DNA from: Candidatus Zixiibacteriota bacterium
Lineage (GTDB): Bacteria; Zixibacteria; MSB-5A5; GN15; FEB-12
Direction: 5' to 3'
Assembly: GCA_040752815.1 (NCBI GenBank)
Contig: JBFMGC010000001.1
Location: 16,449 to 80,448 of the forward strand
DNA length: 64,000 nucleotides
A model generated the notes under the pieces. It did no database searches. It was given only the letters and a program-made list of their open reading frames with translations, and had not been told where the DNA came from. Shown piece by piece: positions 5,898 to 57,088 of the stretch. Numbering within the stretch: position 1 is the first letter of the stretch; every line of letters starts with the position of its first letter. Both the position numbers and the translations under genes were made by a program.

Positions 5898-6974
5898 CTA
5901 CAAACAATCCGGCAATCCCAGTGTCGCCCCAGTAATAAACAGATAGTCAATCAGGTAGGTCACATCCCCGATAGACAGATCCGTTAACTGCGGGTTCTGG
6001 CCGCCGGACTGGTTGACATCGGCCTCGGCCACGCACGGGATAAACTCCGGCTGCTGCGATATGAATAACACGTCGATGATGGTCGTTATGTCGCCGATAG
6101 TCGGTTCGTCGCCGCCCTCACCGTTAGCGTCACCCACCCGCCCCATACAACAGTCGGAGTCGCAGGCGTCGCCGACCCCATCGGAGTCCTCATCCTCCTG
6201 CCCCGGGTTCGATACAAAGGGACAGTTGTCCAAGGTGCACGTTGTGGCCGCATAACCCGGATTGCCGAAACCGTCCTGGTCGGTGTCCGTACATTCATCG
6301 CAATCGTCGCCGACAGCGTCATTATCCGCGTCAGCCTGACTTGGATTGAACAGGCCTGGACAGTTGTCCCAGGTGTCGCCGACCCCGTCGCCGTCACCGT
6401 CAGGACCAGCATTAACACACTCCTGGCCGCGCCAGTTGACACTGTACTCGCCGGCATCGGGATCGACAAACGACGCACGCACAAAATCGGCTGAGTCGAT
6501 ACAGAACGATTCGCCACCGGCCCACCCCGAAATGGTGAAATAGTAGGTGACAATCAACTTGGGCGAGGACGACGCCACGAGCGCTCCCGACGGAAGCCCG
6601 CCACCGGTGCACTGAAACAGGCGGCGAGTATTGGTGCTATCACGATTCCCCTTGAAGTCAACAATCCGAAACAACGAGAAGGCTGCCGAGGCAGCCGGAG
6701 AGAACACGGCGGAGTCAAAGCTGAAGCGATCGCTGTCCCACGAAAGACCTAACGACGCACCCACTACCGGCTGGGCATCATTGAAAAAATACACGGCGAC
6801 TGCTGCGACCGAGTCCACTCCGAGGCGAGGCTGAGATATCGCTGCGAAAATCGAGTCCGGTGCGCCGAGATCGCGCGGGTCCTGGGCCGACGCTCCTTGT
6901 GCCACTGACAAACAAATGACTGTGACCAGCATGGCGGAGAAAATCAGGGTAAATCGAGAAGTCGGATGCTGCAT
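5898..6974 (-). CDS. Secreted protein: cohesin-like domain, thrombospondin type-3 Ca-binding repeats, dockerin-like C-terminal module
   Basis: Signal peptide [34 protein letters not shown]3 repeats [35 protein letters not shown] and [25 protein letters not shown]-terminal module [60 protein letters not shown] at 5901-6152. Confidence 0.8.
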
Positions 6975-7140: not shown

Positions 7141-8850
7141 TCAATTGAAAGCGCCTGAGAAGAAGAGCACGAGTACGATAGTGATAGCGAGGATTGCGCC
7201 GGCAGCGACCAACATCCACGGCGGCACCGACTGCTTTTCGGGCTGGATCGGCGCAACCTGAGTTTGCTCGCGGCGAAGCGCGATCTGTCTGCGCTTATCA
7301 AACTCCTCGTAGTCGAGCTGCATCTCGCCCATCGCATGGTAACGCTGGTTGGGTCGAATTGCCAGCAGCCGCGTGAGTATCTTCTGGATCTCATCGGGTA
7401 ATTGGCCGGCTATGTCGTCCAATCGAAGTGTACCGGAGGCGTCGTACGTGGGGGCCCGCCCGGCTAACAGTTGGTGAAGAATGACACCAATGGCGTAGAT
7501 ATCGCCTAGTTTCGACTGTTTCCGTTCCGGCGGCCCGTACCAATTCTTGCCGGGGGTGGCTTCATAGTGAGCGGGGAGACCAAAATCGGCAATCTTGACT
7601 GTGTCGTCGGCGTCGAACAGGATATTCGATGGTCTCAGGTTGCCGTGCACGATGTTGTTCTTGTGGGCGAAATCAAGTCCGGCGGCGATTTGGAGGCCGA
7701 TGGCGATCGCTTTTTCCCAGTCGTACTTGCGGACCATCCGCTCCGCCAGCGATCCGCCCTGGGCGTAGTCGGACACTACGACAGTATGTTTGAGATCACC
7801 GCCCGAGCCGAGAATGTTATTGATGTTCTTGTGCTTGAGCGTGGTCAGCAGCTTCGCTTCCTTGCGACCGATTTCTCCTCGAGTATGCTTCTTAATCACG
7901 TACAGCCGCTTGTTGACCTTATTCTCAACGAGAATAGTCGACGCGAACTTGTTCTCCTTGATTGTGTCCAGATACTGGCAGTGCCCCACAAACGACTCGA
8001 CATCGGCCACCGCGTAATCGGAGGTCCGCTTCATCGTTGTGCCGCCGCCTATTGCGTTCAAAATCGCGTTCTTGAGATCGTTGGCCGACTGGAAGCGGTC
8101 TTTCGGTTCCGGGGCGAGGCATTTTTGGACGAGATGATCGTACTCGGGAGGATTCGATGGATCGAGCTCCGACGGCATCTTGAACCGTCCCAGCGGCTTC
8201 TTATCGGTGAGGATTTCGTAAACAATGACGCCGAGCGCATAGATATCGGTGGTCTGGTCGACATTGGTGCTGCTGATTTTCTGCTCGGGCGACATATAGG
8301 CCAGGGTGCCCATGACCATGTCCGAGGCGGTCACCTCCCCCTCGCCGGAAGTCACGATCTGGGCAATCCCGAAATCAGCCACCATCGGGTTGCCTTCGCG
8401 ATCGATCAGGATATTGGCCGGCTTTATATCGCGGTGGATAACGCCGTTCTTGTGAGCGTAGTCCAGCGCTTTGCAGATCTGGGCCACCATCTCGAGCTTG
8501 GTGCGGCGGGGAATCTTGGTCGAGTCCATTACTTCGCGGAGCGAGGTTCCGTCGACATACTCCATCACGAAGTAGTAGCGATTGCCGGCTTTCCCCTTGT
8601 CGATTACATGCACGATATTGGGATGGTTCAGGCGGGCAATGACCACCGATTCGCGTTCAAAGCGACGAAGAACCTCGGAATCGTTGCAGAACCGGGCAAA
8701 CAGGATTTTGATGGCTACATCACGGTTGAGCGATTCCTGGCGCGCTCGGAAAATCTCCGCGATACCCCCCTGACCGATCTTGCCGGTGAGAACGTACGGC
8801 CCGATTCTGACTTCTTTGGTCTGAGTTTGTATTTCGGCCACCTGGGTCAT
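7141..8850 (-). CDS. Membrane-anchored Ser/Thr protein kinase with a second, degenerate (pseudokinase-like) kinase domain
   Basis: Domain 1: GQGGIAEIF, VAIKIL, HRDIKPANILI, DFG, GTLAYMSPE. Domain 2: YVIKK, HGNLRPSNILF (catalytic Asp replaced by Asn), DFG, no Gly-rich loop. C-terminal TM VPPWMLVAAGAILAITIVLVLFF. Start taken at ATG 8850 (MTQV) behind GGGAG; the ORF opens at 8871, inside the upstream terminator T-tract. Confidence 0.85.
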   Translation of the reverse strand: MTQVAEIQTQTKEVRIGPYVLTGKIGQGGIAEIFRARQESLNRDVAIKILFARFCNDSEVLRRFERESVVIARLNHPNIVHVIDKGKAGNRYYFVMEYVDGTSLREVMDSTKIPRRTKLEMVAQICKALDYAHKNGVIHRDIKPANILIDREGNPMVADFGIAQIVTSGEGEVTASDMVMGTLAYMSPEQKISSTNVDQTTDIYALGVIVYEILTDKKPLGRFKMPSELDPSNPPEYDHLVQKCLAPEPKDRFQSANDLKNAILNAIGGGTTMKRTSDYAVADVESFVGHCQYLDTIKENKFASTILVENKVNKRLYVIKKHTRGEIGRKEAKLLTTLKHKNINNILGSGGDLKHTVVVSDYAQGGSLAERMVRKYDWEKAIAIGLQIAAGLDFAHKNNIVHGNLRPSNILFDADDTVKIADFGLPAHYEATPGKNWYGPPERKQSKLGDIYAIGVILHQLLAGRAPTYDASGTLRLDDIAGQLPDEIQKILTRLLAIRPNQRYHAMGEMQLDYEEFDKRRQIALRREQTQVAPIQPEKQSVPPWMLVAAGAILAITIVLVLFFSGAFN

Positions 8851-8865
8851 TCCGACTCCCATATG

Positions 8866-8906
8866 CCCCAAAAAACAACGGGGACAGCGCGTAAACGCTG
8901 TCCCCG
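8866..8906 (-). terminator. Intrinsic terminator after the cohesin-like/T9SS gene
   Basis: An 11-bp stem CGGGGACAGCG/CGCTGTCCCCG (8879-8889 / 8896-8906) with a 6-nt loop. On the minus strand it is followed by TTGTTTTTTGGGG. Confidence 0.8.
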
Positions 8907-8934: not shown

Positions 8935-9792
8935 TTATTTAACGAGCATCATTTTGCGCGTCGCTGTACCGCCATCGTGGCTTAGGCGGTAGAAGTAGAT
9001 GCCCGATGGCAGCTTACCGCCGTCGAATTCGTACGTGTAGACGCCCGGATCACGGTGCCCTTCAAAAAGCAGTGCAACTTCCTGTCCCAAAATGTTGAAG
9101 ACCTGGAGCCGTACGCTTCCCGCCCGAGGCAATGCGTAGCGAATAATAGTAGTCGGGTTGAACGGGTTGGGGTAGTTCTGATCGAGAGCGAACTCAGTCG
9201 GCAGCAGGCCGTTGCCGGTCTCATCGTCAACCCCGGTGGGCAGCAGCACTTCAACATAGCCCGGAGTGAAATCCGGCAGGTAGACTCCGGTGCCGGTGTT
9301 ATCGGCAACATCGATTCGGGTGTAAATGTGGATATTGCTGCCCAGTAAGCTGTCGGCGTAAATCGAATCGATCGCCACCCGCTGAGGAGTGGCCGACGTT
9401 GCCACCCTGAAATGCAGCACCGCCACGATGCCGTTGGTGAAGCTGAGCGACGGCAGAGGGTAGACCATGTCGTTGGGTAGCACGGTTATTCGCGCGGTAC
9501 GCGCCGTGTTGTCGATCACATAATACCCGGAGAAGTCGGGACTCCAGATCGTACCCCCCAGAGATACGGAATCAAGCGTGAGCGCGGAACTGGAGAACTT
9601 GAGCGGCAGGGTGATCGCGGAAATGGCGATGTCGTTGTTTCGCAGCCAGACATTAACGGCCACGGACTCGGTCGGCTTGGCCCGGGCCGAGTCGACTGTG
9701 ACCACTCCGTTATACGGCAGTTGGGCGACCACAGCGTCCGTGATCCCGAGAGTTAGGGCGAAGACGATTATTGCCGTTAGCGTTCTTCTCAT
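8935..9792 (-). CDS. Secreted cohesin-like domain protein with T9SS (Por) C-terminal sorting domain
   Basis: C-terminus NYPNPFNPTTIIRYALPRAGSVRLQVFNILGQEVALLFEG..GIYFYRLSHDGGTATRKMMLVK is a classic T9SS CTD. N-terminal domain VVTVDSARAKPTESVAVNVWLRNNDIAISAITLPLKFSSSALTLDSVSLGG..NGIVAVLHFRV shows a cohesin-like pattern. Start ATG 9792 (MRRTLTAIIVFALTL) follows GGAAAGAG. Confidence 0.8.
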   Translation of the reverse strand: MRRTLTAIIVFALTLGITDAVVAQLPYNGVVTVDSARAKPTESVAVNVWLRNNDIAISAITLPLKFSSSALTLDSVSLGGTIWSPDFSGYYVIDNTARTARITVLPNDMVYPLPSLSFTNGIVAVLHFRVATSATPQRVAIDSIYADSLLGSNIHIYTRIDVADNTGTGVYLPDFTPGYVEVLLPTGVDDETGNGLLPTEFALDQNYPNPFNPTTIIRYALPRAGSVRLQVFNILGQEVALLFEGHRDPGVYTYEFDGGKLPSGIYFYRLSHDGGTATRKMMLVK

Positions 9793-10076
9793 ACTCTTTC
9801 CTTTCGCAACGCAGCAGGGCTTGCTTTGATGCCACCGACCGACCATCCACAACTCGGCCTGACTGGCTTTGCGCAAAGCCCGTGCCGCGCCCGACCACGC
9901 AGCGAGACCGGTCCGACGCTTCGTCAGAGGCCACGACCAACCCGCCTAACCGCCTGAAACAAGGCGGCTTAGACCGAGGCGCGAAACTCTGTACGAGCCT
10001 TGATCAACGCGCTTTAATATACGGCCTTGCGACAGAAATAGGCAGAGATTTTCTCACCTGCCTGGCCGCTGCGAGA

Positions 10077-11549
10077 CTATTCCGCCCGAACATTCACGAA
10101 AAGAGTCTGTCCAAAGCGCCAGACGAGAAGGACGACTTCTGACGGCCCGCCCGCTTCGAGCGCAGTCATCGCCGCTGCGAAATCACCCACTGATGCGACT
10201 TCCTGATCGTTGACGCGCTGGATGACATCGCCAGGCGACAGCCCGGATACGTCGGCCCGCCCGCCGAGCTGCAGCTTGGTCACGACTACGCCGGTGAGAG
10301 ATTGCTGCTCGACATTGTAACCGACATAGTCGGAAAACACGAGGTCGCGCACTGTCAGTTCGAACGGTTTGTATTCGAAATCAGCGGCATCGGCGGCCGC
10401 CAGCGGGGCCGCAGCAAGCACCGCGAGAACGGTAAGCGTATCGAGTCGGTCGTTGTCCGGGCGAATGACGGTTAATTCAACCGGCGCGCCGACTCCTATG
10501 TTGGCGACCTCTCTCTGAAACACCGAAAGCTCTTCCTCACGATCGACCTCGACCCGTCGCCCGTTGACAGCGTAGATTATGTCGCCGACACCCAGCCCGC
10601 AGGCAGCCGCTGGGGAGCCAGGTACAACTTCGTTGACTATGATCCCACCCGGTGAGCCGAGCCGGAGGAAATCAGCAATGTCCTGGGTGAGCGCCTGCAT
10701 GGTGATGCCGAGCCACGAGCGGGCGGCCTGCCCGCGACGGGGTGGATTGGCAATCAGAGGTCTTAATCGTTCAGCAGTGACCACTCCAAACAGGGGAATC
10801 TCCATGCGGTCGAAAGATTCCATCCGGCCGGGATCGGAGGAGCGTCCCGAGGGGTCGTCCAGACGCCCCAGCAGTCCCACCGGGTTGAGACGTTCATCGA
10901 AGAGCACTGATCCAAGTTCGAGCGGGCTGAAACCGACAATGAGCGGGAATACCTCCGGGTCGGTGATTACCGATGAGATCATGCCTATGTCCGCCGCGAT
11001 CGGAGGATCGACGAACTCCGGCAACAACGCATGAGTGGCAACCCAACTTCCGACCGGAAACCGGCTCGCAGGCGAAAACTTGACAGGCGAGAACCTGCGG
11101 CCTGCGCCCGTAATCTGCGCGAAGGCCAACCCGGTGTAGGAATCAACTCCTACGTATTCGGCCATGTATTCCTTCTTATCCAGTGTCGTCACCCTGATGC
11201 GCCGGGGCGTGGAGCGGAAGACCATTCCGCCTGTCGGCACAAACGGGTTGGCCTCACTTAGAAAGCCGCCGTCGAAGACAATCAGACCATCCTCGCGCAC
11301 AATCGTACCGAGCAGCCGCTCCTCCTGTTCGTTAACTTCGGTCCCAAACGAATACTCCACCTGGATGGTCAGGATGACCGTGTACGGAACTATGCGCTGC
11401 TGCAAACGGGCAAAATCAAACGACTGAGCGTACGACTCGGGGGCCAACAGCAATCCCACGCCACACGCAAGGGCAACGGCGCTGGTAACCATCGATACTG
11501 GACTTGATGACACATTACTCATTGGTTTGCTCCGCGCCGGCGAGTTCAA
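10077..11549 (-). CDS. HtrA-like periplasmic protein with two PDZ domains and a degenerate (probably inactive) protease domain
   Basis: PDZ 1: SWLGITMQALTQDIADFLRLGSPGGIIVNEVVPGSPAA; PDZ 2: TGVVVTKLQLGGRADVSGLSPGDVIQRVND. The trypsin-fold region lacks the His (TIVREDGLIVFDGGFL), the Asp (TGLAFAQI) and the GNSGGP motif (ELGSVLFDERL). The start is uncertain: TTG 11549, ATG 11522 or ATG 11492. Confidence 0.7.
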   Translation of the reverse strand: MNSPARSKPMSNVSSSPVSMVTSAVALACGVGLLLAPESYAQSFDFARLQQRIVPYTVILTIQVEYSFGTEVNEQEERLLGTIVREDGLIVFDGGFLSEANPFVPTGGMVFRSTPRRIRVTTLDKKEYMAEYVGVDSYTGLAFAQITGAGRRFSPVKFSPASRFPVGSWVATHALLPEFVDPPIAADIGMISSVITDPEVFPLIVGFSPLELGSVLFDERLNPVGLLGRLDDPSGRSSDPGRMESFDRMEIPLFGVVTAERLRPLIANPPRRGQAARSWLGITMQALTQDIADFLRLGSPGGIIVNEVVPGSPAAACGLGVGDIIYAVNGRRVEVDREEELSVFQREVANIGVGAPVELTVIRPDNDRLDTLTVLAVLAAAPLAAADAADFEYKPFELTVRDLVFSDYVGYNVEQQSLTGVVVTKLQLGGRADVSGLSPGDVIQRVNDQEVASVGDFAAAMTALEAGGPSEVVLLVWRFGQTLFVNVRAE

Positions 11550-12888
11550 GGTTAAGCACGACTATCCGCGTAGCCCCGCTGCGTTTGACAGTCAGCATGA
11601 CTTTGCGGTCGCCGGCCTCGATAAGCTGATTGTATCGAATTACCAGTGAGTCAAGATTCTCAACCGGCTCACGATTGATCGCCTGCAGGACGTCACCCTG
11701 GTTCAGTCCGCCCAGGTCCGCCGGGCCGACCCTCCTGACACCGGTGACAAACACACCGGCCGAATCCCGCAATTGGTGGCTGATCTGCATCTGACGCGTA
11801 ATATCTCGAACCGTAAAGCCCCACTTGGCACACTCGAAATCCTCGCCCTGCAATTGGCCGAGCGGACGGGTCAGCACCGTGACCTGGCGCTCCTGCACGC
11901 CGCGGAGGATCTTGAGCGTGATCGCGGTGCCGGGCGCATGGCTGGCTATGCTGTTGTAGAAAGCGGGAAGTTCCTCAACGAAACGGGCCGAGACCGGTCG
12001 GCCGTCGATCTCGAGTATGATATCGCCGGCCATCAGCGACGCCTCGACAGCGGGCGAACCCGGATCTATCGAGGCAATCAGAACGCCGCGATTGTGGTCG
12101 GTGCCGAAGTAATCTTCCAGCTCCTGGAGGGCCTGAGCGGTAACACCAATCCAGCTCCGCGTGACATGGCCGTCATTCAGAATGGCTTTGGTCACTTCCT
12201 TCACGACGTTTACGGGAATGGCAAAGCCGAGGTTGTTGGCCATGAAAGTAGCGCGCGAGTTGATGCCGATCACACGACCCGATAGATCGACCAGCGGGCC
12301 GCCGGAGTTGCCGAAGTTGATGGCGGCGTCGGTCTGAATCCATAGATTGTAGCGGCCGGTTTTCTCGCCCGACGGAAGCCGGTATTCGCCTGAGAAGTAG
12401 CGGTCCTTGGTAGAGATCACGCCCGCCGAAACCGACCGGGCCAGTGAGAGTGGCGAGCCCATCGCAAGCACTTGCTGGCCAGCCTGGACCGAATCGGAAT
12501 TGCCGAGTACGGCAGCCTCGATCTTTCCCTTGTAATCGTTCAGACGGAGCTTAAGAACGGCTATATCGGTGGCCGGATCGCCCCCGACATAATCGGCCGA
12601 GAGCTGCTCCCGGTTGCTGAGCGTGCAGATAATCCGCTTGGCCTTGCCGGCCACGTGATAGTTCGTAACGACATAACCGTCGGGGTGAAATATCACCCCC
12701 GATCCCACCACCGCCTGTTTCTTCAATTGGCCGGTGCGGTAGTCTTCGACCACCGGCTGGATGTGCACCAGCGCGGGCATGACCCGGTCACGGGCCAGAT
12801 ATACCTGCTCCTGATAGGTGGCTGCAACACCACTCGGTGCGGCAAACAACATTATGCCCACCGGCACAAGCGATAAAACTCGTTTCAT
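11515..12888 (-). CDS. htrA: Periplasmic serine endoprotease HtrA/DegP/DegQ family (protease plus 2 PDZ)
   Basis: Catalytic triad motifs VVTNYHVA, DIAVLKL and GNSGGPLVD, plus two PDZ domains. ATG 12888 follows AAGGAG; N-terminus MKRVLSLVPVGIMLFAAPSGVAA. Confidence 0.92.
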   Translation of the reverse strand: MKRVLSLVPVGIMLFAAPSGVAATYQEQVYLARDRVMPALVHIQPVVEDYRTGQLKKQAVVGSGVIFHPDGYVVTNYHVAGKAKRIICTLSNREQLSADYVGGDPATDIAVLKLRLNDYKGKIEAAVLGNSDSVQAGQQVLAMGSPLSLARSVSAGVISTKDRYFSGEYRLPSGEKTGRYNLWIQTDAAINFGNSGGPLVDLSGRVIGINSRATFMANNLGFAIPVNVVKEVTKAILNDGHVTRSWIGVTAQALQELEDYFGTDHNRGVLIASIDPGSPAVEASLMAGDIILEIDGRPVSARFVEELPAFYNSIASHAPGTAITLKILRGVQERQVTVLTRPLGQLQGEDFECAKWGFTVRDITRQMQISHQLRDSAGVFVTGVRRVGPADLGGLNQGDVLQAINREPVENLDSLVIRYNQLIEAGDRKVMLTVKRSGATRIVVLNLELAGAEQTNE

Positions 12889-13111
12889 CTGACTCCTTGT
12901 CTGGTGGCACGCCCAACACAGTCCTAGAACCACCCAAGCGTAGCCGACCGATCCACGCAGGTCAACAACAGATGTCTCCGGTGTCGGTTCCCGTAGGCTT
13001 TATACACGGATTTGAGCGAAATTGGATAAGCCGGCGCCGCGAGTTCCGCCCGAGCGGACAGGTGAAGCGTTCCCCCCCGAGACACGCACATTTGAGGGGC
13101 CAACCGCGGTA

Positions 13112-16395: not shown

Positions 16396-16959
16396 CTAAA
16401 TGTTCTTGAGTTTCCGCTTTAGAAGCTCCCGCGCCCTGAAAATGCGGGCTTTGACCGTCCCGACCGGTATAACCAGTAAATCGGCTATTTCCTCGTAGGA
16501 TTTATCGTCCTTGTGCCGATAGATAATGACTTCCCGGTACTTGGGCGGTAGGGAATCAATCGCCTCGTCTATCGAAAAGCGCTGCTGCTTGCGGACCAGC
16601 TCCAGCTCGGGGTTGTGGGTGTCGTCCGGGACCTCTATTTCCATCCGGCCGTCGCCGGTTTCCACAGGGGAATCCAGAGACAGCGCCTGTATGCGCCGTT
16701 TGCGAAGGTAATCGATCGAGGAGTTGGCCGCAATTTTGTAAAGCCAGGTGGAAAAACGGTACTCCGAGCGGTAGGAGCCCAGCGAGGCGAAGGCCTTCAT
16801 AAAGGTTTCCTGGGCCAGGTCGCGCGCGGCTTCATCGTTGTGAACGATACGATTTATGATATGAAAAATCGCGGCCCGGTGGGTATCGACCAGTTGCGCA
16901 CAGGCCTTCTGGTCTCCCTTCAAAGCGGCGGCAATGAGCGCTGATTCGTCCTCGATCAA
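16396..16959 (-). CDS. ECF (group IV) RNA polymerase sigma factor
   Basis: Region 2: AARDLAQETFMKAFASLGSYRSEYRFSTWLYKIAANSSIDYLRKRR. Region 4: LPPKYREVIIYRHKDDKSYEEIADLLVIPVGTVKARIFRARELLKRKL. Start placed at TTG 16959 behind GAGGAAGGA. The ORF-track start (17046) coincides with the -35 box of the promoter listed below. Confidence 0.9.
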   Translation of the reverse strand: MIEDESALIAAALKGDQKACAQLVDTHRAAIFHIINRIVHNDEAARDLAQETFMKAFASLGSYRSEYRFSTWLYKIAANSSIDYLRKRRIQALSLDSPVETGDGRMEIEVPDDTHNPELELVRKQQRFSIDEAIDSLPPKYREVIIYRHKDDKSYEEIADLLVIPVGTVKARIFRARELLKRKLKNI

Positions 16960-17017
16960 TCCTTCCTCTTTCGAAACCGACCGTAACTCGCTGTGTGATC
17001 GGGTACCATAATTTAAT

Positions 17018-17046
17018 AGTATAGTAGTCTTGGGGCCGGTTGGCAA
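17018..17046 (-). promoter_or_regulatory. Sigma70-type promoter of the ECF sigma operon
   Basis: On the minus strand: TTGCCA (17046-17041), a 17-nt spacer, TATACT (17023-17018). Confidence 0.5.
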
Positions 17047-18775: not shown

Positions 18776-19381
18776 CTACCTTGACGCCTCGACGTATAAG
18801 TCATTGACCCTGTTCCAGTTAATGACACAGAAGAAGGCTTCGATATACTCCGGCCGCCGGTTCTGATATTTCAGATAGTAGGCGTGCTCCCAGACATCCA
18901 GGCCCACGATCGGCTTCTTGCCCAGGGACAAGGGCGAATCCTGATTGGCCGTGGCTACGATCTCGAATTCTCCCTTAGTCAAGGTCAGCCAGACCCAGCC
19001 GCTGCCAAACAGATTTGCCGCCGCGGTTGAAAATTGGCTTTTGAACTGATCAAAACCGCCGAAATGCTTTTTGATAGCGTCGGCAGCCGGGCCACCGAAA
19101 GTCGTCCCCTTTGCCAGAAGCGGCCAAAAAAAGTCATGGTTGGCCGTACCGCCGCCGTGGTTGCGGACCGCGGTGCGAATAGACTCCGGAATTGCAGCCA
19201 GATTGCTGATCAACTCCTCCGCTGACTTTGCCTCCAGCTCAGGATGGCCGGCGAGGGCGGCGTCGAGCTTGGTGACGTAGGTTTGATGATGCTTCGTGTG
19301 GTGGATTTCCATGGTTTGAGCGTCGATATACGGCTCCAGCGCGTCGTATGCGTACGGGAGTTTAACGAGAGTGTGTGCCAT
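18776..19381 (-). CDS. Fe/Mn superoxide dismutase
   Basis: [29 protein letters not shown] and [26 protein letters not shown] lies 9 nt upstream of the ATG. Confidence 0.95.
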
Positions 19382-20722: not shown

Positions 20723-23011
20723 TCACAAGCACGCCGGCAGGCCGAGCTCGGGGCCGGTAATAAACAGGTAGTCGATCAAGATGGTGACATCACCGATCGA
20801 GACATCCAGCGGCGACGGCAACGCCCCGCCGGATTGATTGACGTCGGCCTCGGCCAGACACGGGGGCTGGGTCCCGGAGATGAACAGCATATCGATGAGG
20901 AGAGTGACGTCGCCGATTGTCGGCTCGTCTCCGCCCTCGCCGTTGGCATCCCCCACACGACCCGAGCAGCACGATACGTAAACACTGCCGTCGCTCGTCT
21001 CGGGGGTATAGTCGCCTGCGTAGGTAGTCAGCCAGAGACTCTGGCCCGCATAGCTGGTAAAGACAATCGGACTGCTGCCCGACACCGCCGAGCCGAGATC
21101 GGTGAAAAACAGCGACACAATCGAACCGCTTCCGGCCGCAAGCGGCGGCTCATTGCCTGCCCCGAGAAACAGGGTCGCCGACTTGGTGGCGGGCACGTAG
21201 CTGACGATAGATTTTATGTCGAAAAACTCGGTCCGGTGGCCCACAATGGAAATGGAATCGAATCTGAGATTGAACGGGCCGGCCCAACTGAAGGGAATTC
21301 TCACCTCAGTCAGCGCCAGGTAATTGGTGGCGCTTAGGTCGATTCTTGCCCGGTTATTGACAAGGGGGGCATCACTCATGCGCAGCGTGTCGGCGAACGC
21401 CGAGATCATGCCGTCGAATGTGCGACGGTACGTTCGCTCGGGTGTGGTTACGCTGACCGTCACGCTAAAATAGCCCGGCATGTCGTACATATGCTGGGGA
21501 TGTTGCTCCGTCGACGTAGCGCCGTCGCCGAACTCCCAGAACCAGCCGATGCCATTTAGAGAATAATCTGTGAACTGAACCGCCAGCGGGATCGGCCCGA
21601 AAGTGCTGTCGGCGGCTATGTCAACAAACGGCGGATTCGTGTTCCCATAGACCAAATTGACCGTGTCCCAGTTGGCTACCGCCAGGTCATTGTGGAACGA
21701 GTACCGGTAGTAGCCGACGGCGCTGATTACCGGCGCCGTCGCGAGCGACAGCCAGCCTGACACAAGGTCGTAACAGTAATCTGCTTCGGACAAAAGCGCG
21801 CCGTCTGTTAGCACCGAGTCTATTTCATACAAAGGGCTATGTTCGGTGTAGAACAGCTTCGTAGAACCGTCGACCACAAAGGTATCGGCAAGCGTAACCA
21901 CCCCAAGCCCGTCTATATCCACCCAGGCCAGCTCCTCGGCCACCATCGAAAGAGCTGACGACCACACCGGCGCCGTAGTAAGGGTCGTACCCAGGTTCTC
22001 ATACACCCACACCTTTTGAAACCAGCGCCCGGCGGCGAGGTCATCGTCGCCGTCATTGTCATAATCGTATAGCGCTAGCGCCGAGCCGTAACCGCCGGTG
22101 GAAGACTGCCAGCCGTGCGTGGTGCTCAGGCTCCCGGCACCGTCGTTGAAATACACGCGAAAACGTCCCTGTCCGCCGAGTTGATTGTTGTAAGCTACCA
22201 CCAGGTCGAGCCAGTCATCGCCGTTTATGTCACCGAACATCAGCGTATTGCCGGGTTCGACCGTGGCCGCTTGCCAGGTGGGCGTGGTGGAGATAGCCCC
22301 CGCGTTGTTGTGGAACACGGCGGTAGCTGCGGCGTCAAACGTGAAAGCCAGGTCGAGATCGCCGTCCCGGTCAACATCACCCCAGGCAACATCGAGCGCC
22401 GCCCCCGACGCCGATGACAGCCAGTAGGGACTTCCTCCGAATGATCCCTCATCGTTTAGATAGATGCGCTGCTGCTGGTAATCCTGATTGTACCCCTCGC
22501 CACAGGCAAAAGCGATATCAAGATCGCCGTCGCCGTCAACATCGCCCAGCGCGCAGGAAAATGAGAAGAGCTCATCCGGTGTGAACCAGTCCGGCACGGT
22601 ATGCGGAAAGCCGGTGTTGTTAAGGTACAGATTGCTGCGGTTGGGATCGCCGAAGCCGCTGCCAAGATAGTTGGACACGAAGAGATCCGGAAAGCCGTTG
22701 TCGTCGACATCCCCTACCGCGCAATGCCCGGAGTACTCGAGATCGGCTGAAAACCATGATGCCGAAGCCGGGAAGCTCGAGGTACCGAAGATATATATGG
22801 TGTTGGCCGCCTGGACGATGTCGTTCCCGTTGGAATAGAACACGTCGATAATTCCATCGCGATTGCAGTCCCGCCAGATCATGCCGGTTGAGTAGACGTC
22901 TTGCTCGGCGGAAGACCATATCGGCGTCGTACCGAGTGGGACTTGCGCCGACGTGGAACGGACAACGGGCAGAATCGCGGCGAGGATGATCAAACGGGCG
23001 GCGGAATTCAT
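20723..23011 (-). CDS. Secreted FG-GAP/VCBS-repeat protein with PKD, cohesin-like and dockerin-like C-terminal modules
   Basis: FG-GAP repeats: DCNRDGIIDVF, GDVDDNGFPDLFV, GDVDGDGDLDIAF, GDVDRDGDLDLAF, GDINGDDWLDLVV, YDYDNDGDDDLAA. PKD: WEFGDGATSTEQHPQHMYDMPGYFSVTVSV. Cohesin-like: VRIPFSWAGPFNLRFDSISI. Dockerin-like module at 20726-20971. Confidence 0.85.
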   Translation of the reverse strand: MNSAARLIILAAILPVVRSTSAQVPLGTTPIWSSAEQDVYSTGMIWRDCNRDGIIDVFYSNGNDIVQAANTIYIFGTSSFPASASWFSADLEYSGHCAVGDVDDNGFPDLFVSNYLGSGFGDPNRSNLYLNNTGFPHTVPDWFTPDELFSFSCALGDVDGDGDLDIAFACGEGYNQDYQQQRIYLNDEGSFGGSPYWLSSASGAALDVAWGDVDRDGDLDLAFTFDAAATAVFHNNAGAISTTPTWQAATVEPGNTLMFGDINGDDWLDLVVAYNNQLGGQGRFRVYFNDGAGSLSTTHGWQSSTGGYGSALALYDYDNDGDDDLAAGRWFQKVWVYENLGTTLTTAPVWSSALSMVAEELAWVDIDGLGVVTLADTFVVDGSTKLFYTEHSPLYEIDSVLTDGALLSEADYCYDLVSGWLSLATAPVISAVGYYRYSFHNDLAVANWDTVNLVYGNTNPPFVDIAADSTFGPIPLAVQFTDYSLNGIGWFWEFGDGATSTEQHPQHMYDMPGYFSVTVSVTTPERTYRRTFDGMISAFADTLRMSDAPLVNNRARIDLSATNYLALTEVRIPFSWAGPFNLRFDSISIVGHRTEFFDIKSIVSYVPATKSATLFLGAGNEPPLAAGSGSIVSLFFTDLGSAVSGSSPIVFTSYAGQSLWLTTYAGDYTPETSDGSVYVSCCSGRVGDANGEGGDEPTIGDVTLLIDMLFISGTQPPCLAEADVNQSGGALPSPLDVSIGDVTILIDYLFITGPELGLPACL

Positions 23012-23128: not shown

Positions 23129-25528
23129 TCAGGGACAGGTTGGTAATATCAGCGACGGTCCGGTGACAAACAAATAGTCGATCAGTATGGTCGCATCCAC
23201 AATTGAGACATCCTCCGACACCGGGTCGGCCCCGCCCGACTGGTTGACATCAGCCTCAGTCAGGCACGCGACCGGTTCCTGGGTGATGAACAGATAGTCC
23301 ACCAGGCGGGTCACATCGGCAATTGTCGGCACGTCCCCTCCGTCGCCGTCAACATCGCCCACAATTCCGATACAGCAGCCAAGACGAATCGAGCCTGATG
23401 TTGTCGCTGTCACGTACTCATAGGTGTCGGCGCGAAAACTGGGGGCGTAACTGCCATACGTGACAAATGTAACCGGATTGGTCGCGGTACCGAACTGAAG
23501 AGGTACCCTGAACCACAGACTGACCACCGGACCGCTCCCCGGCGCCAGGGCCGGCTCCTGTTCCGTGTTGGGTGTTCTGAGCGAGATGGTCGCCCGTTTC
23601 TGGGCCAGGGCAATGCTGATGATACTCTGTGTGGGGAAATACGACGTTCTAAGGCCGGCGGTGGAAAACGAGTCAAAAGACATTCCCAGTGGACCGTCCC
23701 ACGAGAACGGGACTTCAATCTGGTTTACCGGCAGAAAATTGCGGGCGTAGACATCCATGCGCACGCGTGAGCCGGCCTGGACCTGTATGTTTGGCAGGGC
23801 CAGTGAGTCAGAGTGGGCCAAAACCATACCGGGAATTGTACGAGTGAACTGACCCTCCTCGGTGCCAATGGTAAGCGAAACGTTGTATATCCCGGGATCA
23901 GCATACTCATGGGCAGGGGTGGAATCGTCGGACAAGGCCCCATCGCCAAAGTCCCAGGTCAGCGCCGAAGCCGGCAGCAAAGATGAATTCGCGAAAGTGA
24001 CTGTAAGCGGTGCCTGTCCGCGCGTGGTATCCGCCGAGAACGCCACCGGCCAGGTGAGGGCCTTGCCCAGGTCGATGGTCCCCCAGCCGTAGGAGTTATC
24101 GGGACTGGCCGCCCGCGTTGCGGTGGCTTTGAGCGCCTCGCGCACCTGGCGGGCGGTAAGTTCAGGGCGGGCTTCGATTAAAAGGCAAGCCGCCCCGGCA
24201 ATCAGAGGTGCCGACAGTGACGTGCCGCTGGCGTAGGCGTAACTCTGATCCCCGGATGCCGACGCGCCGTAAGTATCCACACCCAGCGCGCACACCTCGG
24301 GTTTGATACGGCCGTCGAAAGTCGGCCCGCGCGACGAAAACGACGCTACAAAGCCACTGGTGTTCACCGCACCGGCGGCCAGAATGTCAAACGCGTCAGC
24401 GGGCGCCGAAATCGTGCCAGGCAAATACCCGGCGTTGCCGGCAGAAACCACCAGCACGATACCGAGCGCGTCGCAGGTGTTGGCCGCGAGCGTAATCACC
24501 GCCGTGCGACCGTCCATGTCGGAGTAAGTGTACCAGTCGGAATAACCGAGCGAAGTGGAGATTACATCGGTCCCGATCGAGTCCGCGAACTCCAATGCGG
24601 CGACCCAGTTGTCTTCCTCCACCTGAGTCTCATCGGTAATATCCTCCGTCTTGCACAGAATGAAATCAGCGCCGTAGGCGGGGCCAATCAGCCTCCCTGG
24701 CGCGTAGCCGCCCGCCACCGACCAGGTCAGCGTGCCGTGATTCCACTGATTGGGCGAATCGCCCGGTTCCATGGAAGTGTTCGGGTCGTTCATCACGAAA
24801 TCGTATTCCGCGAGCACTCGCCCCGCAGCGACAGCGCCCGCTACCGCCGCGTGGGTCTTGCGATAACCGGTATCGGTCATTGTGAGCGCCACGCCCCGGC
24901 CCGTCAAACCCTGCGCATGAGCGGTCGCTACGTTTATCTGGTATATCTGCGCCTGGGACTGGCCATAGTCCAGTGCGTCCCCGGACATCGTGCCGCCTTG
25001 CGGGCCGGGGCGCTCATCCTCCCCAACCTCGAAAGGCCGTCGGAAGACAGCCACCGGTCGTACCTCGGCCACCATGGGAAGGGCCGCAAGGTCGGCCAGT
25101 CGGTCTATGGAAATATCAAAAGATGCGGCGTTGAGCCAACGGGACACACGGCGCACCGTGCCGCCAAGTGCCAAGACCTGACTTACATAGCTTGCCGAGA
25201 GGGGAAGATCGGCGAACTGCACGTCGGCCGCGCCCAAACGCATGCGACGACTCAAAGCGCGATCGGTTAAACGTACTCTCTTGGCCGCCGACAAAAACTC
25301 CGCGTGCGTCCAAACCCCCTTATCCGTAAAGAAAACCCAGACACGCGCAGTATCTTCATCGCGCCCCGCGAGGTACGAGAGGACTCTCTCGGGCACAAAC
25401 CCAGAGGCTTTTTGGCGGACAAATACTGTTTCTCCAGCTACGCCAGTCACGATTCCCCCGAGAATTACCGAGCAGGAGGCTAATATTGAGGTTACGGCGG
25501 TTAAGTGATGTCGACGCGGTAAGTACAT
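23129..25528 (-). CDS. Secreted subtilisin-family (S8) serine protease with PKD, cohesin-like and dockerin-like C-terminal modules
   Basis: S8 triad motifs MTDTGY (Asp), NHGTLTWSVAGG (His) and SGTSLSAPLIAGAAC (Ser). PKD: WDFGDGALSDDSTPAHEYADPGIYNVSLTI. Cohesin-like: IEVPFSWDGPLGMSFDSFST. Dockerin-like module at 23132-23377. Start ATG 25528 (MYLPRRHH..). Confidence 0.9.
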   Translation of the reverse strand: MYLPRRHHLTAVTSILASCSVILGGIVTGVAGETVFVRQKASGFVPERVLSYLAGRDEDTARVWVFFTDKGVWTHAEFLSAAKRVRLTDRALSRRMRLGAADVQFADLPLSASYVSQVLALGGTVRRVSRWLNAASFDISIDRLADLAALPMVAEVRPVAVFRRPFEVGEDERPGPQGGTMSGDALDYGQSQAQIYQINVATAHAQGLTGRGVALTMTDTGYRKTHAAVAGAVAAGRVLAEYDFVMNDPNTSMEPGDSPNQWNHGTLTWSVAGGYAPGRLIGPAYGADFILCKTEDITDETQVEEDNWVAALEFADSIGTDVISTSLGYSDWYTYSDMDGRTAVITLAANTCDALGIVLVVSAGNAGYLPGTISAPADAFDILAAGAVNTSGFVASFSSRGPTFDGRIKPEVCALGVDTYGASASGDQSYAYASGTSLSAPLIAGAACLLIEARPELTARQVREALKATATRAASPDNSYGWGTIDLGKALTWPVAFSADTTRGQAPLTVTFANSSLLPASALTWDFGDGALSDDSTPAHEYADPGIYNVSLTIGTEEGQFTRTIPGMVLAHSDSLALPNIQVQAGSRVRMDVYARNFLPVNQIEVPFSWDGPLGMSFDSFSTAGLRTSYFPTQSIISIALAQKRATISLRTPNTEQEPALAPGSGPVVSLWFRVPLQFGTATNPVTFVTYGSYAPSFRADTYEYVTATTSGSIRLGCCIGIVGDVDGDGGDVPTIADVTRLVDYLFITQEPVACLTEADVNQSGGADPVSEDVSIVDATILIDYLFVTGPSLILPTCP

Positions 25529-25622
25529 TTGCTTTCGATGCTCGGGAGTCCTATGTCTGCCAGCCCGCACTCGCCTACTTCAAGAAAACCGAGCCCGCTC
25601 AATTGTCAAGAAATATTCCTAA

Positions 25623-25750: not shown

Positions 25751-26173
25751 ATGACAGCCCGGCGCAACACCTTACAGAGGAAAATAATCCTCGAGGAGGT
25801 CCGGGGATCGCTCGAGCATCCGACCGCAGCCGAAGTGCACGCCGAGGTACGCAAGAGGATACCGCATATCAGCCTGGGTACTGTTTATCGGAACCTCGAT
25901 CTCCTGAGCCAGGAAGGGCTGATACGAAAACTCGAGCCGAATGGCCGCGAGGCGAGATTCGACGGCATACTGACACCCCACTATCATCTGCGATGCCGCG
26001 TTTGCGGCCGGATTGAAGATGTACTTGATCCGGTAACCGTTCGGGTGGATGGTGGCATTGATGAACCATCGGGCTGGCAGGTATTGATACCGCAAGTTGA
26101 ATTCGCAGGGCTCTGTCCCGACTGTGGGACGGGTTCCCAGGTTTCACCCAGGGACAACGCGACCAGAGAGTGA
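25751..26173 (+). CDS. perR: Fur-family transcriptional regulator, PerR-like by context
   Basis: HPTAAEVHAEVRKRIPHISLGTVYRNLDLLSQEGLI (winged helix), HYHLRCRVCG and CPDCG (structural Zn CxxC pairs). It heads an oxidative-stress gene cluster. Confidence 0.85.
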   Translation: MTARRNTLQRKIILEEVRGSLEHPTAAEVHAEVRKRIPHISLGTVYRNLDLLSQEGLIRKLEPNGREARFDGILTPHYHLRCRVCGRIEDVLDPVTVRVDGGIDEPSGWQVLIPQVEFAGLCPDCGTGSQVSPRDNATRE

Positions 26174-26363
26174 CATGTTACGGAGTGTAGCAGGACAGGA
26201 GATCCTCGGTATTGACAAGGAGTAGATTATCCGACATGCTGTGGTGAACGAGCTGCCGCCGGGCCGCCATGTGGGCAGGTGGCCAAGTATCTTACTCGCC
26301 ACAGCCAAGGGGCGCTCGATCATGACAAGAACCGGGTAAGGCAAAAAAGTTCCGGAGGAGCTA

Positions 26364-26867
26364 ATGACTCTCGAAAAAGCGATCAAGACAGCAATCGACT
26401 ATGAAATCAAGGTCCGCGACTCTTATCTGGCTTCGGTAAAGAAGATCCGCGACGAAACCGGGCGCCGGGTTTTCGAGGTGCTGGGGAAGGAAGAGCAGGG
26501 CCATATTGACTACCTGCAAGCAAAGCTTGCCGAATGGCAAAGCACGGGTCGGATCAAACCGGGAAAGCTTAACACGGTTGTGCCGGCGCGGAAGATAATC
26601 GACGCCGGAGTCAGAAAGCTGAGCGCCCACATATCGGCCAACGAGTACGATACGGAACTTGAGATGCTGCGTAAGGCGCTGGCTCTTGAGCAGGAAACGT
26701 CCGGTTTCTATCGCCGCATGGTTAGCCAGCTCAAGCAGGACGGCGAGCTGTTTGGCAGATTCCTCGAAATCGAGGAAGGTCACCAGGCGATCGTCCAGGC
26801 TGAGATAGACTATCTGACTCGCAGTGGTACGTTCTTCGACTTTCAGGAGTTCAATCTCGAAGACTGA
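26364..26867 (+). CDS. Rubrerythrin-family diiron four-helix-bundle protein lacking a rubredoxin domain (erythrin-like)
   Basis: Diiron ligands E (DYEIKV), ExxH (EEQGH), E (ALEQET), ExxH (EEGH). GGAGGAG lies 3 nt before the ATG. Confidence 0.8.
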   Translation: MTLEKAIKTAIDYEIKVRDSYLASVKKIRDETGRRVFEVLGKEEQGHIDYLQAKLAEWQSTGRIKPGKLNTVVPARKIIDAGVRKLSAHISANEYDTELEMLRKALALEQETSGFYRRMVSQLKQDGELFGRFLEIEEGHQAIVQAEIDYLTRSGTFFDFQEFNLED

Positions 26868-26883
26868 AGGCAGCCGGAATCGT

Positions 26884-27399: not shown

Positions 27400-27474
27400 G
27401 TGACAGGGCAGTTTGAAGATGAGGACTTTCGGATTTTCAATAGACGTACCGAATACCGGAAAGGAGCCATGAAG

Positions 27475-27852: not shown

Positions 27853-27855
27853 GAC

Positions 27856-28368: not shown

Positions 28369-28432
28369 GGCCTATTAGTACAACCTGCTCGCGTGCTCGC
28401 GCGCGGGCAGGTTACTTGCTCGACTATTAAGT

Positions 28433-29128: not shown

Positions 29129-29304
29129 CAAGGGAGTTGACGCCGAAACGCCGGAAGCGTAATCTTCGCCGGTGCGGCCGCTTCGAGCGGGGCAAATGCG
29201 CCCGGTGCGAGCAGCCTGACGATGACGGCCACGTGTGCGACATAAAAAGAAAGCGCGGCGGTTTATCTACACCTTCGGAAGGAGACAGCGATGGACGTTT
29301 ATGA
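29125..29304 (+). CDS. Candidate small basic 4-Cys protein (59 aa)
   Basis: Its ATG overlaps the HEAT-gene stop (ATGA). Sequence MTRELTPKRRKRNLRRCGRFERGKCARCEQPDDDGHVCDIKRKRGG.., with third codon positions mostly G/C. It is one codon below the ORF-track cut-off. Confidence 0.3.
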   Translation: MTRELTPKRRKRNLRRCGRFERGKCARCEQPDDDGHVCDIKRKRGGLSTPSEGDSDGRL

Positions 29305-55252: not shown

Positions 55253-57088
55253 ATGCATAAACGCCTGTTTTGGTTATCTGCTGTTATCGCTGTTTTCGCT
55301 CTTGCCAATCCCGGCAACGCCGCCCAGAGCGAGCAGTACTGGCAACTCGTGTTTCGCTACACGAGCTCTGATCTACAGCTAGTCAAGGCCGACCCGATCG
55401 CTCAAATAGAAAAAGAAATCAGAACTCCCGGGCTGGAATCAGCGGCAATTCGAGTAGGCTACCGTTGCGAGTGGCTGGATAACGCAGGTCGACCCGTGTT
55501 CGTTTCGTCCACGGAGATGCCAGTCGGCATTCGCGTACCCCTGGGCGATTCCCTGCCCTGCCAATGGCTGGTACCTGAAGAGGGAATCATAGTCGTGCGG
55601 ACAACCGGACCTGATCCGAAAGCGAATTCGGAGAGCATCAGGCTGACGCAGACGGGCATAGTCAACCGCGCACGACCGGCGATAAGTCTCCCCGCGCCGT
55701 TTCTCCAAACCGAGGTCTCGGTGAGTGTTGCGTCGGCGACGCGAACCGCCGCCCTGGCGCCGGGGCCGGTGGGAGTTCAGAAGATCAGAGACACCGGCCC
55801 GGACGCCAATCGTCTGGTCATGGTTATCATGGGCGACGGTTACACGGCGGCTGATCTGAGCGGGGGCGCGTTTTCGGGCGCGGCCGCATCGCTGGGAGCG
55901 GCTTTCGAGTCCAAGCCGCCATGGGATGTTTTGTTCGCCGCGACTAATCTGTACCGTATCGATATCGAGAGCAACGAGCAGGGCGCCGACCACGAGGTGT
56001 TCGGTGTTCTCAAAGATACCTATTTGAATTCATCGTTCTGGATCAACGGCATCGAGCGCCTGCTGTCGCTGACCGGGGACGGCTACTTCAAGGCGATTCA
56101 AGCATCTGACAATTTGGTCGGGCCGGGTGTCTGGGATCTTATCCTGGTACTGGTGAACTCGACCAAGTACGGCGGTTCCGGCGGTGGGATTGCGGTTTCA
56201 TCGGTGCACTCGGCCGCGGCAGAGATCGTCATACATGAAGTTGGCCACACTTTTGCCAACCTGGCTGACGAATACGAAACCGCATATCCGGGGTATCCGC
56301 CGGGCGACAGCGAGCCGAATGTTGATTTCGATTACGACGGTCCCGGCCTCAAGTGGCTGATCTGGGTCGAACCGGGCACGCCGCTGCCGACACCTGAGTC
56401 GTCGCCATATCTGACCACGGTGGGTACTTTTGAAGGTGCCCGTTACTTGTCGAGCGGCATCTATCGACCGTGGTATAACTGCGAGATGCGTTCGCTTAAT
56501 CGGCCGTTCTGCCCGATCTGCCAGGAGGCTCACGTGCTTGATTTCACCGGCATGGTTTCCCTGACCGACCTGGTCGCACCGCCCGTCGGTACGAATCAGA
56601 ATATCGACGAAGGCGGAACGCTGTTCGCCGTTACTCCGATTCCGTTGTCAGATCTCGAATACGAGTGGTTTCTTGACGGGGTCCCGATACCGGCAGGCGT
56701 GGGGCCGTCGCTGTCACTCACTCCCGACATGATGGCCGAGCATAATCAGACCCTGCAGCTTAATATCGTGCTGAACACGCCCCTGGTCCGAAAGACGACT
56801 GTCACGCGAAGTTACCTCTGGCCGGTAACGACAGAGGTCAGTCTTTGTTGCACTGGCGTAGTCGGCGACGCCAATTACGACGGCGCATACGATCCAACCA
56901 TCGGCGACATTACGGCCATCATAGATCATCTCTTCGTGAGCGGCACCCCTCTGGCCTGTTACGAGGAAGCCGATGTCAACCAGTCGGGAGGCACGTCGCC
57001 AGGTTCGACCGATATAACGATTGGAGACATTACCATTCTGATCGACAATCTCTTCATCACCGGGGTCACTTTGCCCGCTTGTTTCTGA
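55253..57088 (+). CDS. Secreted M64-like (IgA-peptidase family) zinc metallopeptidase with dockerin-like C-terminal module
   Basis: VLVNSTKYGGSGGGIAVSS..AAEIVIHEVGHTFANLADEY (HExxH in M64 context). Signal peptide present. Module [60 protein letters not shown] at 56846-57085. Confidence 0.8.
   Translation: MHKRLFWLSAVIAVFALANPGNAAQSEQYWQLVFRYTSSDLQLVKADPIAQIEKEIRTPGLESAAIRVGYRCEWLDNAGRPVFVSSTEMPVGIRVPLGDSLPCQWLVPEEGIIVVRTTGPDPKANSESIRLTQTGIVNRARPAISLPAPFLQTEVSVSVASATRTAALAPGPVGVQKIRDTGPDANRLVMVIMGDGYTAADLSGGAFSGAAASLGAAFESKPPWDVLFAATNLYRIDIESNEQGADHEVFGVLKDTYLNSSFWINGIERLLSLTGDGYFKAIQASDNLVGPGVWDLILVLVNSTKYGGSGGGIAVSSVHSAAAEIVIHEVGHTFANLADEYETAYPGYPPGDSEPNVDFDYDGPGLKWLIWVEPGTPLPTPESSPYLTTVGTFEGARYLSSGIYRPWYNCEMRSLNRPFCPICQEAHVLDFTGMVSLTDLVAPPVGTNQNIDEGGTLFAVTPIPLSDLEYEWFLDGVPIPAGVGPSLSLTPDMMAEHNQTLQLNIVLNTPLVRKTTVTRSYLWPVTTEVSLCCTGVVGDANYDGAYDPTIGDITAIIDHLFVSGTPLACYEEADVNQSGGTSPGSTDITIGDITILIDNLFITGVTLPACF

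Follow-up and report, generated by a model that had tools for sequence, protein, structure and literature searches.

The DNA analysed here is a 64-kb window (64,000 nucleotides of the 186-kb contig JBFMGC010000001.1, from a Candidatus Zixiibacteriota bacterium) that encodes four proteins ending in the same module of about 85 amino acids with four cysteines. We found that this module is a family not described in Pfam or NCBIfam, and that the window holds four cohesin-type domains beside the four modules. The best explanation, which we hold with moderate confidence, is that the module is a cysteine-stapled, divergent dockerin that plugs its carrier proteins into cohesins, and that a cohesin protein anchored by the type IX secretion system (T9SS) is one receptor for it.

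A six-frame hidden Markov model (HMM) scan of the whole window found exactly four copies of the terminal module (E 6e-43 to 6e-34) and nothing more at E<=10. When aligned, the four copies share 40 invariant columns, among them an N-terminal Cys-Cys (CC), a central Cys and a penultimate Cys, and all four carrier open reading frames (ORFs) stop one residue past the last Cys. The N-termini of all four carriers look like signal peptides by eye. Pfam recognised TSP_3 in ORF-A, FG-GAP and PKD in ORF-B, Peptidase_S8 and PKD in ORF-C, and Peptidase_M64 in ORF-D. An earlier reading of the window from its sequence only had described this shared ending, its consensus and the four passengers (thrombospondin type 3 (TSP3), FG-GAP, S8 and M64), all of which our searches bear out. 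It had left out the strand of copies 1 to 3, which translation of the intervals places on the minus strand with copy 4 on the plus strand, and the cohesin-type domains that three of the four proteins contain. The modules and their carriers are as follows.

5901..6161, minus strand: dockerin-like four-Cys module copy 1, C-terminus of ORF-A (HMM E 6e-43; AlphaFold2 (AF2); Foldseek; stop codon at 5898-5900)
5898..6974, minus strand: ORF-A, 358 aa, with signal peptide, cohesin-like N-domain, TSP3 repeats and module
6144..6407, minus strand: thrombospondin type 3 (Ca-binding) repeats of ORF-A (Pfam TSP_3 38 bits; NCBIfam match aa 190-277)
20726..20977, minus strand: dockerin-like four-Cys module copy 2, C-terminus of ORF-B (HMM E 1e-40)
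20723..23011, minus strand: ORF-B, 762 aa, with signal peptide, FG-GAP repeats, PKD, cohesin and module (NCBI MEW5794741.1)
23135..23383, minus strand: dockerin-like four-Cys module copy 3, C-terminus of ORF-C (HMM E 3e-36)
23129..25570, minus strand: ORF-C, up to 813 aa, start uncertain, with subtilase S8, PKD, cohesin and module
56840..57085, plus strand: dockerin-like four-Cys module copy 4, C-terminus of ORF-D (HMM E 6e-34)
55253..57088, plus strand: ORF-D, 611 aa, with signal peptide, M64 metallopeptidase and module (NCBI MEW5794774.1)

Identity between the module copies is only 33-52% at third codon positions, against 73-81% at second positions. This indicates that the copies are old paralogues kept by selection at the protein level, and on the divergence of the third positions a recent DNA repeat was rejected as their origin. 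In NCBI the names of the carriers follow the passenger domain (ORF-B is an FG-GAP-like repeat-containing protein, ORF-D an M64 family metallopeptidase), and short module-only proteins are called "hypothetical". The annotated start of ORF-C is unlike both starts that we tried. Read from an internal Met (window 25486-25528, minus strand) its N-terminus is MYLPRRHHLTAVTSILASC.., which contains a lipobox-like LASC, and by this motif ORF-C, the S8 protease, is a possible lipoprotein.

The four window modules gave no above-threshold match in Pfam. Single scans of 48 modules gave weak matches to Dockerin_1 (PF00404) in five, the best at E 0.0061. The EF-hand models PF00036 and PF13202 matched weakly in only 3/48 and 1/48 modules (best E 0.015), and the identity of the module as an EF-hand pair was rejected on these counts. 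At E<=1 the module had no match in NCBIfam, whose models include those for T9SS and sortase-type sorting signals. A T9SS C-terminal sorting domain (TIGR04183, TIGR04131 or PF18962) was rejected on this result and on the helical model described below; the same models do find a true T9SS C-terminal domain (CTD) in the protein at 8935-9795. Exosortase, rhombosortase and sortase tags (PEP-CTERM, MYXO-CTERM, GlyGly-CTERM, LPXTG) were likewise rejected, the module having neither a transmembrane segment with basic tail nor an NCBIfam match. The NCBIfam MtsC match on ORF-A is confined to the TSP3 repeats (aa 190-277).

An AF2 model of the module, built from a 48-sequence alignment, reached a predicted local distance difference test score (pLDDT) of 93.5 and a predicted template modelling score (pTM) of 0.84. 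It has two long helices (residues 22-34 and 64-76) and between them a short one in the linker (44-47), and its termini lie side by side, joined by a beta-bridge from residue 8 to residue 85. We compared this model by Foldseek against 350,542 PDB chains. The top four matches were all dockerins (5m2s_B, 5m2o_B, 8x3a and 5n5p_B), of which 5m2s_B and 5m2o_B are Ruminococcus flavefaciens group 1 dockerins and 8x3a is the C. thermocellum S8-protease double dockerin. The best match, 5m2s_B, had a probability of 0.89, template modelling (TM) scores of 0.64/0.70 and a root-mean-square deviation of 2.8 Å, while the TM score of non-dockerin matches was <=0.26 throughout.

Since the Foldseek E-values were weak (0.31-3.2), which is usual for a helical domain of 87 residues, we searched for sequence bridges to dockerins. 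Relatives in metagenome-assembled genomes (MAGs) of other Zixibacteria, 38-45% identical to the module, have shorter loops and keep the CC / C / penultimate-C pattern, for example CCvGlTGNVDnDPdDlvDIgDvsaLIDyLF...C.eEANiDGdpdG.vDIsDit.LIDYLF.....pC. The sole Pfam family that these shorter-loop relatives match is Dockerin_1, over its full length and at 16-19 bits, and a variant without the N-terminal CC exceeds the Dockerin_1 cut-off at 26.3 bits. A further bridge is P0337, a protein 35% identical to the C-terminal region of ORF-C along its full length, with the same PKD-cohesin context. Where the four-Cys module would sit, P0337 carries a dockerin with canonical loops (Dockerin_1 positions 1-56 of 57, 19.3 bits). 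In the module itself loop 1 reads D-A-N-G-x-G-x-D-E-P-T-I-G-D (about 14 residues) and loop 2 reads D-[VI]-N-Q-S-G-G, 6-7 residues, then D-I-T-I-G-D (about 19-21 residues). Despite the insertions, the start Asp and the terminal Asp are conserved in both loops. The two repeats are nearly symmetric, with xxTIGD[VI]SxxIDxxFI occurring twice, and from this we infer a symmetry of the kind seen in dual-binding-mode dockerins. Because of the predicted fold, the Foldseek matches to dockerins and the sequence bridges, we conclude that the module is highly probably a divergent dockerin homologue.

Several observations, along with the weak Foldseek E-values, weigh against this identification. Dockerin_1 scored at best 10.7 bits in the window (E 0.63, ORF-C only) against a cut-off of 22.9, and the module profile (A1), run against PDB sequences, found no dockerin, just a chance match to Lmo1466 (E 0.088). 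When the module profile was aligned by hhalign with two verified dockerins, CelS (2mte/1daq) and CelD (1clc), the result was weak (E 0.037, probability 1.4%); the motifs themselves are correctly paired, GDANG..D with GDVNDDG and EADVNQSGG with NADLNEDGR, and this pairing speaks for dockerins as a third, tentative sequence bridge. Canonical 12-residue Ca loops (D-x-[DN]-x-[DNS]-G-x-[IV]-[DN]-x-x-D) are not present in the module, and the usual ligand position 5 is variable in loop 1. The Cys-x-COOH ending, found in 248/270 full-length modules, is also unusual for dockerins.

We next describe the extent of the family. The module profile, searched against 1.84 billion representatives clustered at 50% identity, matched 2,145 of them at E<=1e-3; the number fell to 687 at <=1e-10 and to 306 at <=1e-30. 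The module runs to the last residue in nearly all of the 150 best matches. In about 5% of proteins it lies just after the signal peptide, lies internally or occurs twice (P0139, P0192, P0073, P0117, P0134 and P0202 have it in non-C-terminal positions), and these occurrences indicate that the module is not strictly a C-terminal tag. The passengers, counted in 88 full-length members, were TSP3 (19), SBBP beta-propellers (10), FG-GAP, PKD, MopE, papain-like peptidases, Kelch and others. No glycoside hydrolase was among the 25 commonest passenger families of these members.

The distribution of the module is narrow. A scan of one genome per species gave 91 matches, almost all of them in MAGs of Zixibacteria, a phylum within the Fibrobacteres-Chlorobi-Bacteroidetes (FCB) group, and a few in MAGs labelled Ignavibacteriales or unclassified. 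Copies per MAG, often clustered, numbered at least 38 in MFD05942.bin.1.404 and at least 20 in AUK044, and other contigs of the window's own assembly carry at least two more (P0007 and P0072). These results extend the family far beyond the four window copies that the sequence-only reading had described; its view of the module as undescribed and as dockerin-like with longer loops also agrees with the library searches, the three-helix model and the loop lengths above. Two further observations were made among the relatives. On CAVTJJ010000003.1 at least six module copies lie in about 65 kb (approximately 210-275 kb; L032, L005, L010, L023, L013 and L001), a density of module genes similar to that of the window. 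In P0139, a protein of 325 aa, the module occupies aa 38-122 right behind the signal peptide, and C-terminal to it lie multihaem cytochrome c motifs with sub-threshold matches to Cytochrome_C7 and to the Geobacter CxxxxCH...CXXCH family; going by these motifs, P0139 is a possible dockerin-anchored extracellular electron-transfer protein.

We counted cysteines in 270 distinct modules, all full-length, that come from related proteins (P0001-P0213) and loci (L001-L078). Each of the four Cys positions is conserved in 99.3-99.6% of these modules, as the sequence-only reading had expected of homologues. That reading gave the four-Cys pattern correctly and missed a six-Cys subtype (..GTCdG..C....PTCdD..), which makes up about 55% of modules; the window copies are all of the four-Cys subtype. 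The extra cysteines fall at profile columns 39 (the inter-repeat linker) and 60 (loop 2), with both present in 148 modules, neither in 118 and only 4 discordant (Fisher p 5e-72, a value that overstates independence in related sequences). The total is four or six Cys in 234/270 modules. An all-or-none pair is the pattern that a disulfide predicts, and this suggests that the module cysteines very likely form disulfides, with a third disulfide from linker to loop 2 implied for the six-Cys subtype. The Cys pattern, taken with the adjacent termini of the AF2 model, suggests that one residue of the N-terminal CC is probably bonded to the penultimate Cys, a covalent clasp of the two termini, and that the other probably pairs with the Cys of the inter-repeat linker.

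We describe here the cohesin-type domains of the window, which number four, as do the dockerin-type domains. Three of them lie inside module proteins (ORF-A, ORF-B and ORF-C) and the fourth in the protein at 8935-9795, a likely partner that the sequence-only reading had also left out.

8935..9795, minus strand: 286-aa protein with signal peptide, cohesin and T9SS type-A CTD, the candidate surface anchor, about 2 kb from ORF-A
9250..9702, minus strand: cohesin domain of the anchor protein (A4 profile E 7e-29; Pfam Cohesin above threshold)
8938..9183, minus strand: T9SS type-A CTD of the anchor protein (Por_Secre_tail; TIGR04183)
6411..6884, minus strand: N-terminal cohesin-like domain of ORF-A, A5 type (local HMM E 9e-73)
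20978..21391, minus strand: cohesin-type domain of ORF-B, directly fused to the module (A4 profile E 9e-46)
23384..23809, minus strand: cohesin domain of ORF-C, directly fused to the module (AF2 and Foldseek)

The candidate anchor scored 28.3 bits against Pfam Cohesin (PF00963, cut-off 24.1) at aa 32-138. Its CTD at aa 208-283 scored 36 bits against Por_Secre_tail (PF18962) and 44.3 bits against TIGR04183. An NCBI protein of Candidatus Zixiibacteriota, named as T9SS type A sorting domain-containing, has exactly the same sequence (100% identity), and we found more than 100 orthologue clusters of the anchor in Zixibacteria, nearly all about 285 aa long and composed of Cohesin and Por_Secre_tail. 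The anchor contains no Cys at all, which excludes an intermolecular disulfide between it and the module.

In ORF-B and ORF-C the module is preceded by domains of about 140 aa that share 37% identity, and a local iterative search joined the anchor cohesin to them. The cohesin of ORF-C itself falls below the Pfam Cohesin threshold. An AF2 model of the ORF-C cohesin-module dyad (pLDDT 89.7, pTM 0.71) gave, in a Foldseek search against the PDB, a top 50 made up entirely of cohesins (E 9e-11, TM up to 0.84). The best PDB sequence match of the A4 profile was 5m2s_A (E 0.026), which is the cohesin crystallised with 5m2s_B, the dockerin that best matches the module. For the N-domain of ORF-A, BLASTP against the ORF-C cohesin gave no match and its profile found no match among PDB sequences; a link emerged with profiles, hhalign joining it to cohesin family A4 at a probability of 95.8% (E 8e-9). 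By this hhalign link the ORF-A N-domain appears to be related to the A4 cohesins.

Among the loci that we fetched, the same cohesin-like domains end in either the module or a T9SS CTD. None of 213 module proteins has a T9SS CTD, and the one overlap of the two among ORFs of the loci is a weak CTD match of 16.9 bits. An ORF of 299 aa in L050 (AUK044 MAG, frame +2, aa offset 1238) has the ORF-A-type cohesin-like domain followed by a T9SS CTD in place of the TSP3 repeats and module; it exemplifies a second type of cohesin-like protein with T9SS anchoring. In four long proteins (P0126, P0144, P0073 and L071:1-3222(+)) we observed an extra, more canonical dockerin-like segment (Dockerin_1 18-22.5 bits) in addition to a cohesin and the C-terminal four-Cys module; these may act as adaptors or as proteins akin to scaffoldins. 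A four-Cys module stands at both ends of P0073.

The family, its conservation and predicted fold, the presence and fold of the cohesins, the T9SS tag and the taxonomic spread are directly supported by these data. From them we infer a mechanism that includes Ca binding, disulfide pairing, cohesin binding with a choice of cohesin, and a surface location. The module would be a duplicated loop-helix (F-hand type) Ca-binding domain with both loops lengthened, its fold held by two disulfides within the chain, with a third in the six-Cys subtype. Carrier proteins would be exported by Sec and then undergo oxidative folding. The module would then plug its carrier, be it an S8 or M64 peptidase, an FG-GAP, TSP3 or beta-propeller protein or another adhesin-like protein, into cohesins. 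The T9SS type-A domain would fix the receptor cohesin of about 285 aa to the outer membrane, and the cohesins within many module proteins would allow carriers to be chained onto each other.

Two other explanations were weighed against this one. The module might have the dockerin fold and be a disulfide-locked Ca domain and yet not bind a cohesin in trans, forming instead a cis dyad of the X-module-dockerin (X-Doc) kind, binding another ligand (polysaccharide, lipopolysaccharide or mineral surfaces) or simply stabilising its protein. The linker between cohesin and module is only 0-6 residues in at least 18 proteins and can be of zero length, and a cohesin fused so closely could pair with the module in cis, or serve as an X-module does, instead of being a trans receptor, which counts against trans binding; the pTM of the dyad model is also fairly high for two domains. 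About 90% of module proteins have no cohesin of their own, and in the loci few cohesin-only proteins stand beside 109 module ORFs, so that sockets seem far fewer than plugs, although plugs far outnumber anchoring sockets in cellulosomes too. The partners of many non-cellulosomal dockerins, which Peer et al. 2009 reportedly found across life together with cohesins, are said to be unknown. We nevertheless consider a module without trans binding unlikely. The same genomes encode a conserved single-cohesin T9SS protein with no other functional domain, for which a role other than that of receptor is hard to see, and the near symmetry of the module repeats is that of dockerins with two binding modes.

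The module could also be a new C-terminal sorting or secretion domain that takes the place of the T9SS CTD and is recognised, and perhaps cut off, by an export or attachment machinery of its own. In about 95% of proteins it forms the very C-terminus, where the ending Cys-[LMF]-COOH hardly varies, and dozens of copies per genome are attached to unrelated passengers, but true dockerins are likewise mostly C-terminal and multi-copy. The mutual exclusion of module and T9SS CTD, with the same cohesin-like domains taking either ending, would fit a sorting role. So would the fact that module proteins, having no T9SS CTD, have no evident route across the outer membrane, a further point against the dockerin mechanism. 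On the other hand, the fold is that of a helical dockerin and not the beta-sandwich of a T9SS CTD, it has no transmembrane helix or basic tail, and it matches no NCBIfam or Pfam sorting model. The module is also found behind the signal peptide, internally and doubled in one protein, and no conserved or dedicated machinery lies in the neighbourhoods of the four window genes, which are scattered among housekeeping genes. We regard a sorting domain as quite improbable, and the cysteine-stapled dockerin with a T9SS-anchored cohesin receptor remains the explanation that we prefer.

The module shares with type I dockerins (PF00404) two loop-helix repeats whose loops begin with D-x-N and close with an Asp, a three-helix fold with adjacent N- and C-termini, and a mostly C-terminal position on many secreted proteins; loop insertions also occur in R. 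flavefaciens dockerins. Unlike type I dockerins it falls below the Pfam threshold with loops of about 14 and 19-21 residues, has four or six near-invariant Cys and a Cys-x-COOH end, and is carried by peptidases and proteins with adhesin-like repeats in a diderm FCB bacterium. T9SS CTDs (TIGR04183 type A, TIGR04131 type B) resemble the module in being about 80 aa long, C-terminal and present on dozens of secreted proteins per FCB genome; they are beta-sandwiches, whereas the module is helical and also occurs N-terminally.

Contact between the N- and C-terminus is known to stabilise dockerins. The R. flavefaciens ScaA dockerin has an intramolecular clasp and forms an X-module-dockerin dyad (PMC3821032), and a C. 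thermocellum S8 protease is anchored through a dockerin with an intramolecular clasp (8x3a; PMC12484212). As in these dyads a beta-sandwich directly abuts the module, and as in C. thermocellum an S8 protease would be anchored to a cell-bound cohesin. The known clasps are non-covalent, while that of the module would be a disulfide, and the abutting domain is a cohesin in the Zixibacteria dyads but an X-module in the known ones. In a review of cellulosomes, disulfides in dockerins appear as engineered additions only (PMC12484212).

The closest precedent is in Ca. Stygibacter (Cloacimonadota), for which a cellulosome-like complex was inferred with dockerin enzymes that include an S8 peptidase and with a cohesin scaffoldin bearing a T9SS CTD (PMC8542988). 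Both organisms belong to the FCB group and have a dockerin on S8 peptidase or other non-cellulase cargo and a T9SS-CTD cohesin. Ca. Stygibacter differs in having dockerins that InterPro recognises and a 3,755-aa multi-cohesin scaffoldin with carbohydrate-binding modules (PMC8542988), whereas Zixibacteria have an unrecognised Cys-stapled dockerin, a single-cohesin anchor of about 285 aa and many cargo proteins with a cohesin of their own. Thus the idea of a T9SS-anchored cohesin-dockerin system in the FCB group already has a precedent in Cloacimonadota and is conceptually anticipated (PMC8542988). What is new is an unrecognised lineage of Cys-stapled, long-loop dockerins expanded in one candidate phylum, and the combination of a minimal T9SS-anchored cohesin with frequent cohesin-dockerin dyads. 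A literature search for Zixibacteria with dockerin or cohesin found, in the library searched, no paper linking them.

Other genes of the window are given here for context. Between ORF-A and the cohesin-T9SS gene lies a 576-aa membrane-anchored protein (7141-8871, minus strand) with two protein-kinase domains (Pkinase, two stretches). Just upstream of the cohesin-T9SS gene are two tandem, overlapping periplasmic serine proteases of the HtrA/DegP type (10077-12933, minus strand; Trypsin_2 and two PDZ), followed by toast-rack/LiaF-like and bactofilin-domain proteins and an extracytoplasmic function (ECF)-type sigma factor (16396-17046), and this group of genes looks like an envelope-stress cluster. 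The stretch 25751-30670 (plus strand) is an oxidative-stress island that also holds a HEAT-repeat protein and a ferredoxin-NADP-reductase-like protein. Its further genes and a superoxide dismutase elsewhere in the window, a set that fits an oxygen-sensitive organism, are listed below.

25751-26173, plus strand: Fur-family regulator
26364-26867, 26824-27399 and 29291-29782, plus strand: three rubrerythrin/ferritin-like ORFs
27400-27852, plus strand: desulfoferrodoxin
27856-28368, plus strand: ferritin
18776-19381, minus strand: Fe/Mn superoxide dismutase

Pfam and NCBIfam have missed a large domain family that comprises about 2,000 clusters at 50% identity and reaches dozens of genes in a genome. 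In consequence, surface proteins of Zixibacteria are in hundreds of cases called hypothetical or named after their passengers, and a new HMM would mend their annotation. If the stapled dockerin is real, it would be a natural disulfide-locked module and could provide designer protein assemblies with a cohesin-dockerin pair that is both robust and orthogonal. Our data suggest that Zixibacteria hang proteases and adhesin-like proteins on their surface by cohesin-dockerin interaction. This would carry cohesin-dockerin assembly into another uncultured diderm phylum, with cargo that is proteolytic and adhesive and not cellulolytic. A more far-reaching picture, which is tentative and on balance doubtful, is a surface network seeded by the T9SS-anchored cohesin, in which dockerin-bearing proteases, adhesins and multihaem cytochromes, about one in ten with its own cohesin, are daisy-chained into a disulfide-locked scaffold. 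Such a network, if true, would be a protein-degrading, adhesive 'cellulosome without cellulases' in a diderm. The cohesin-dockerin proposal thus offers a testable model for how sediment and groundwater bacteria may organise their surface.

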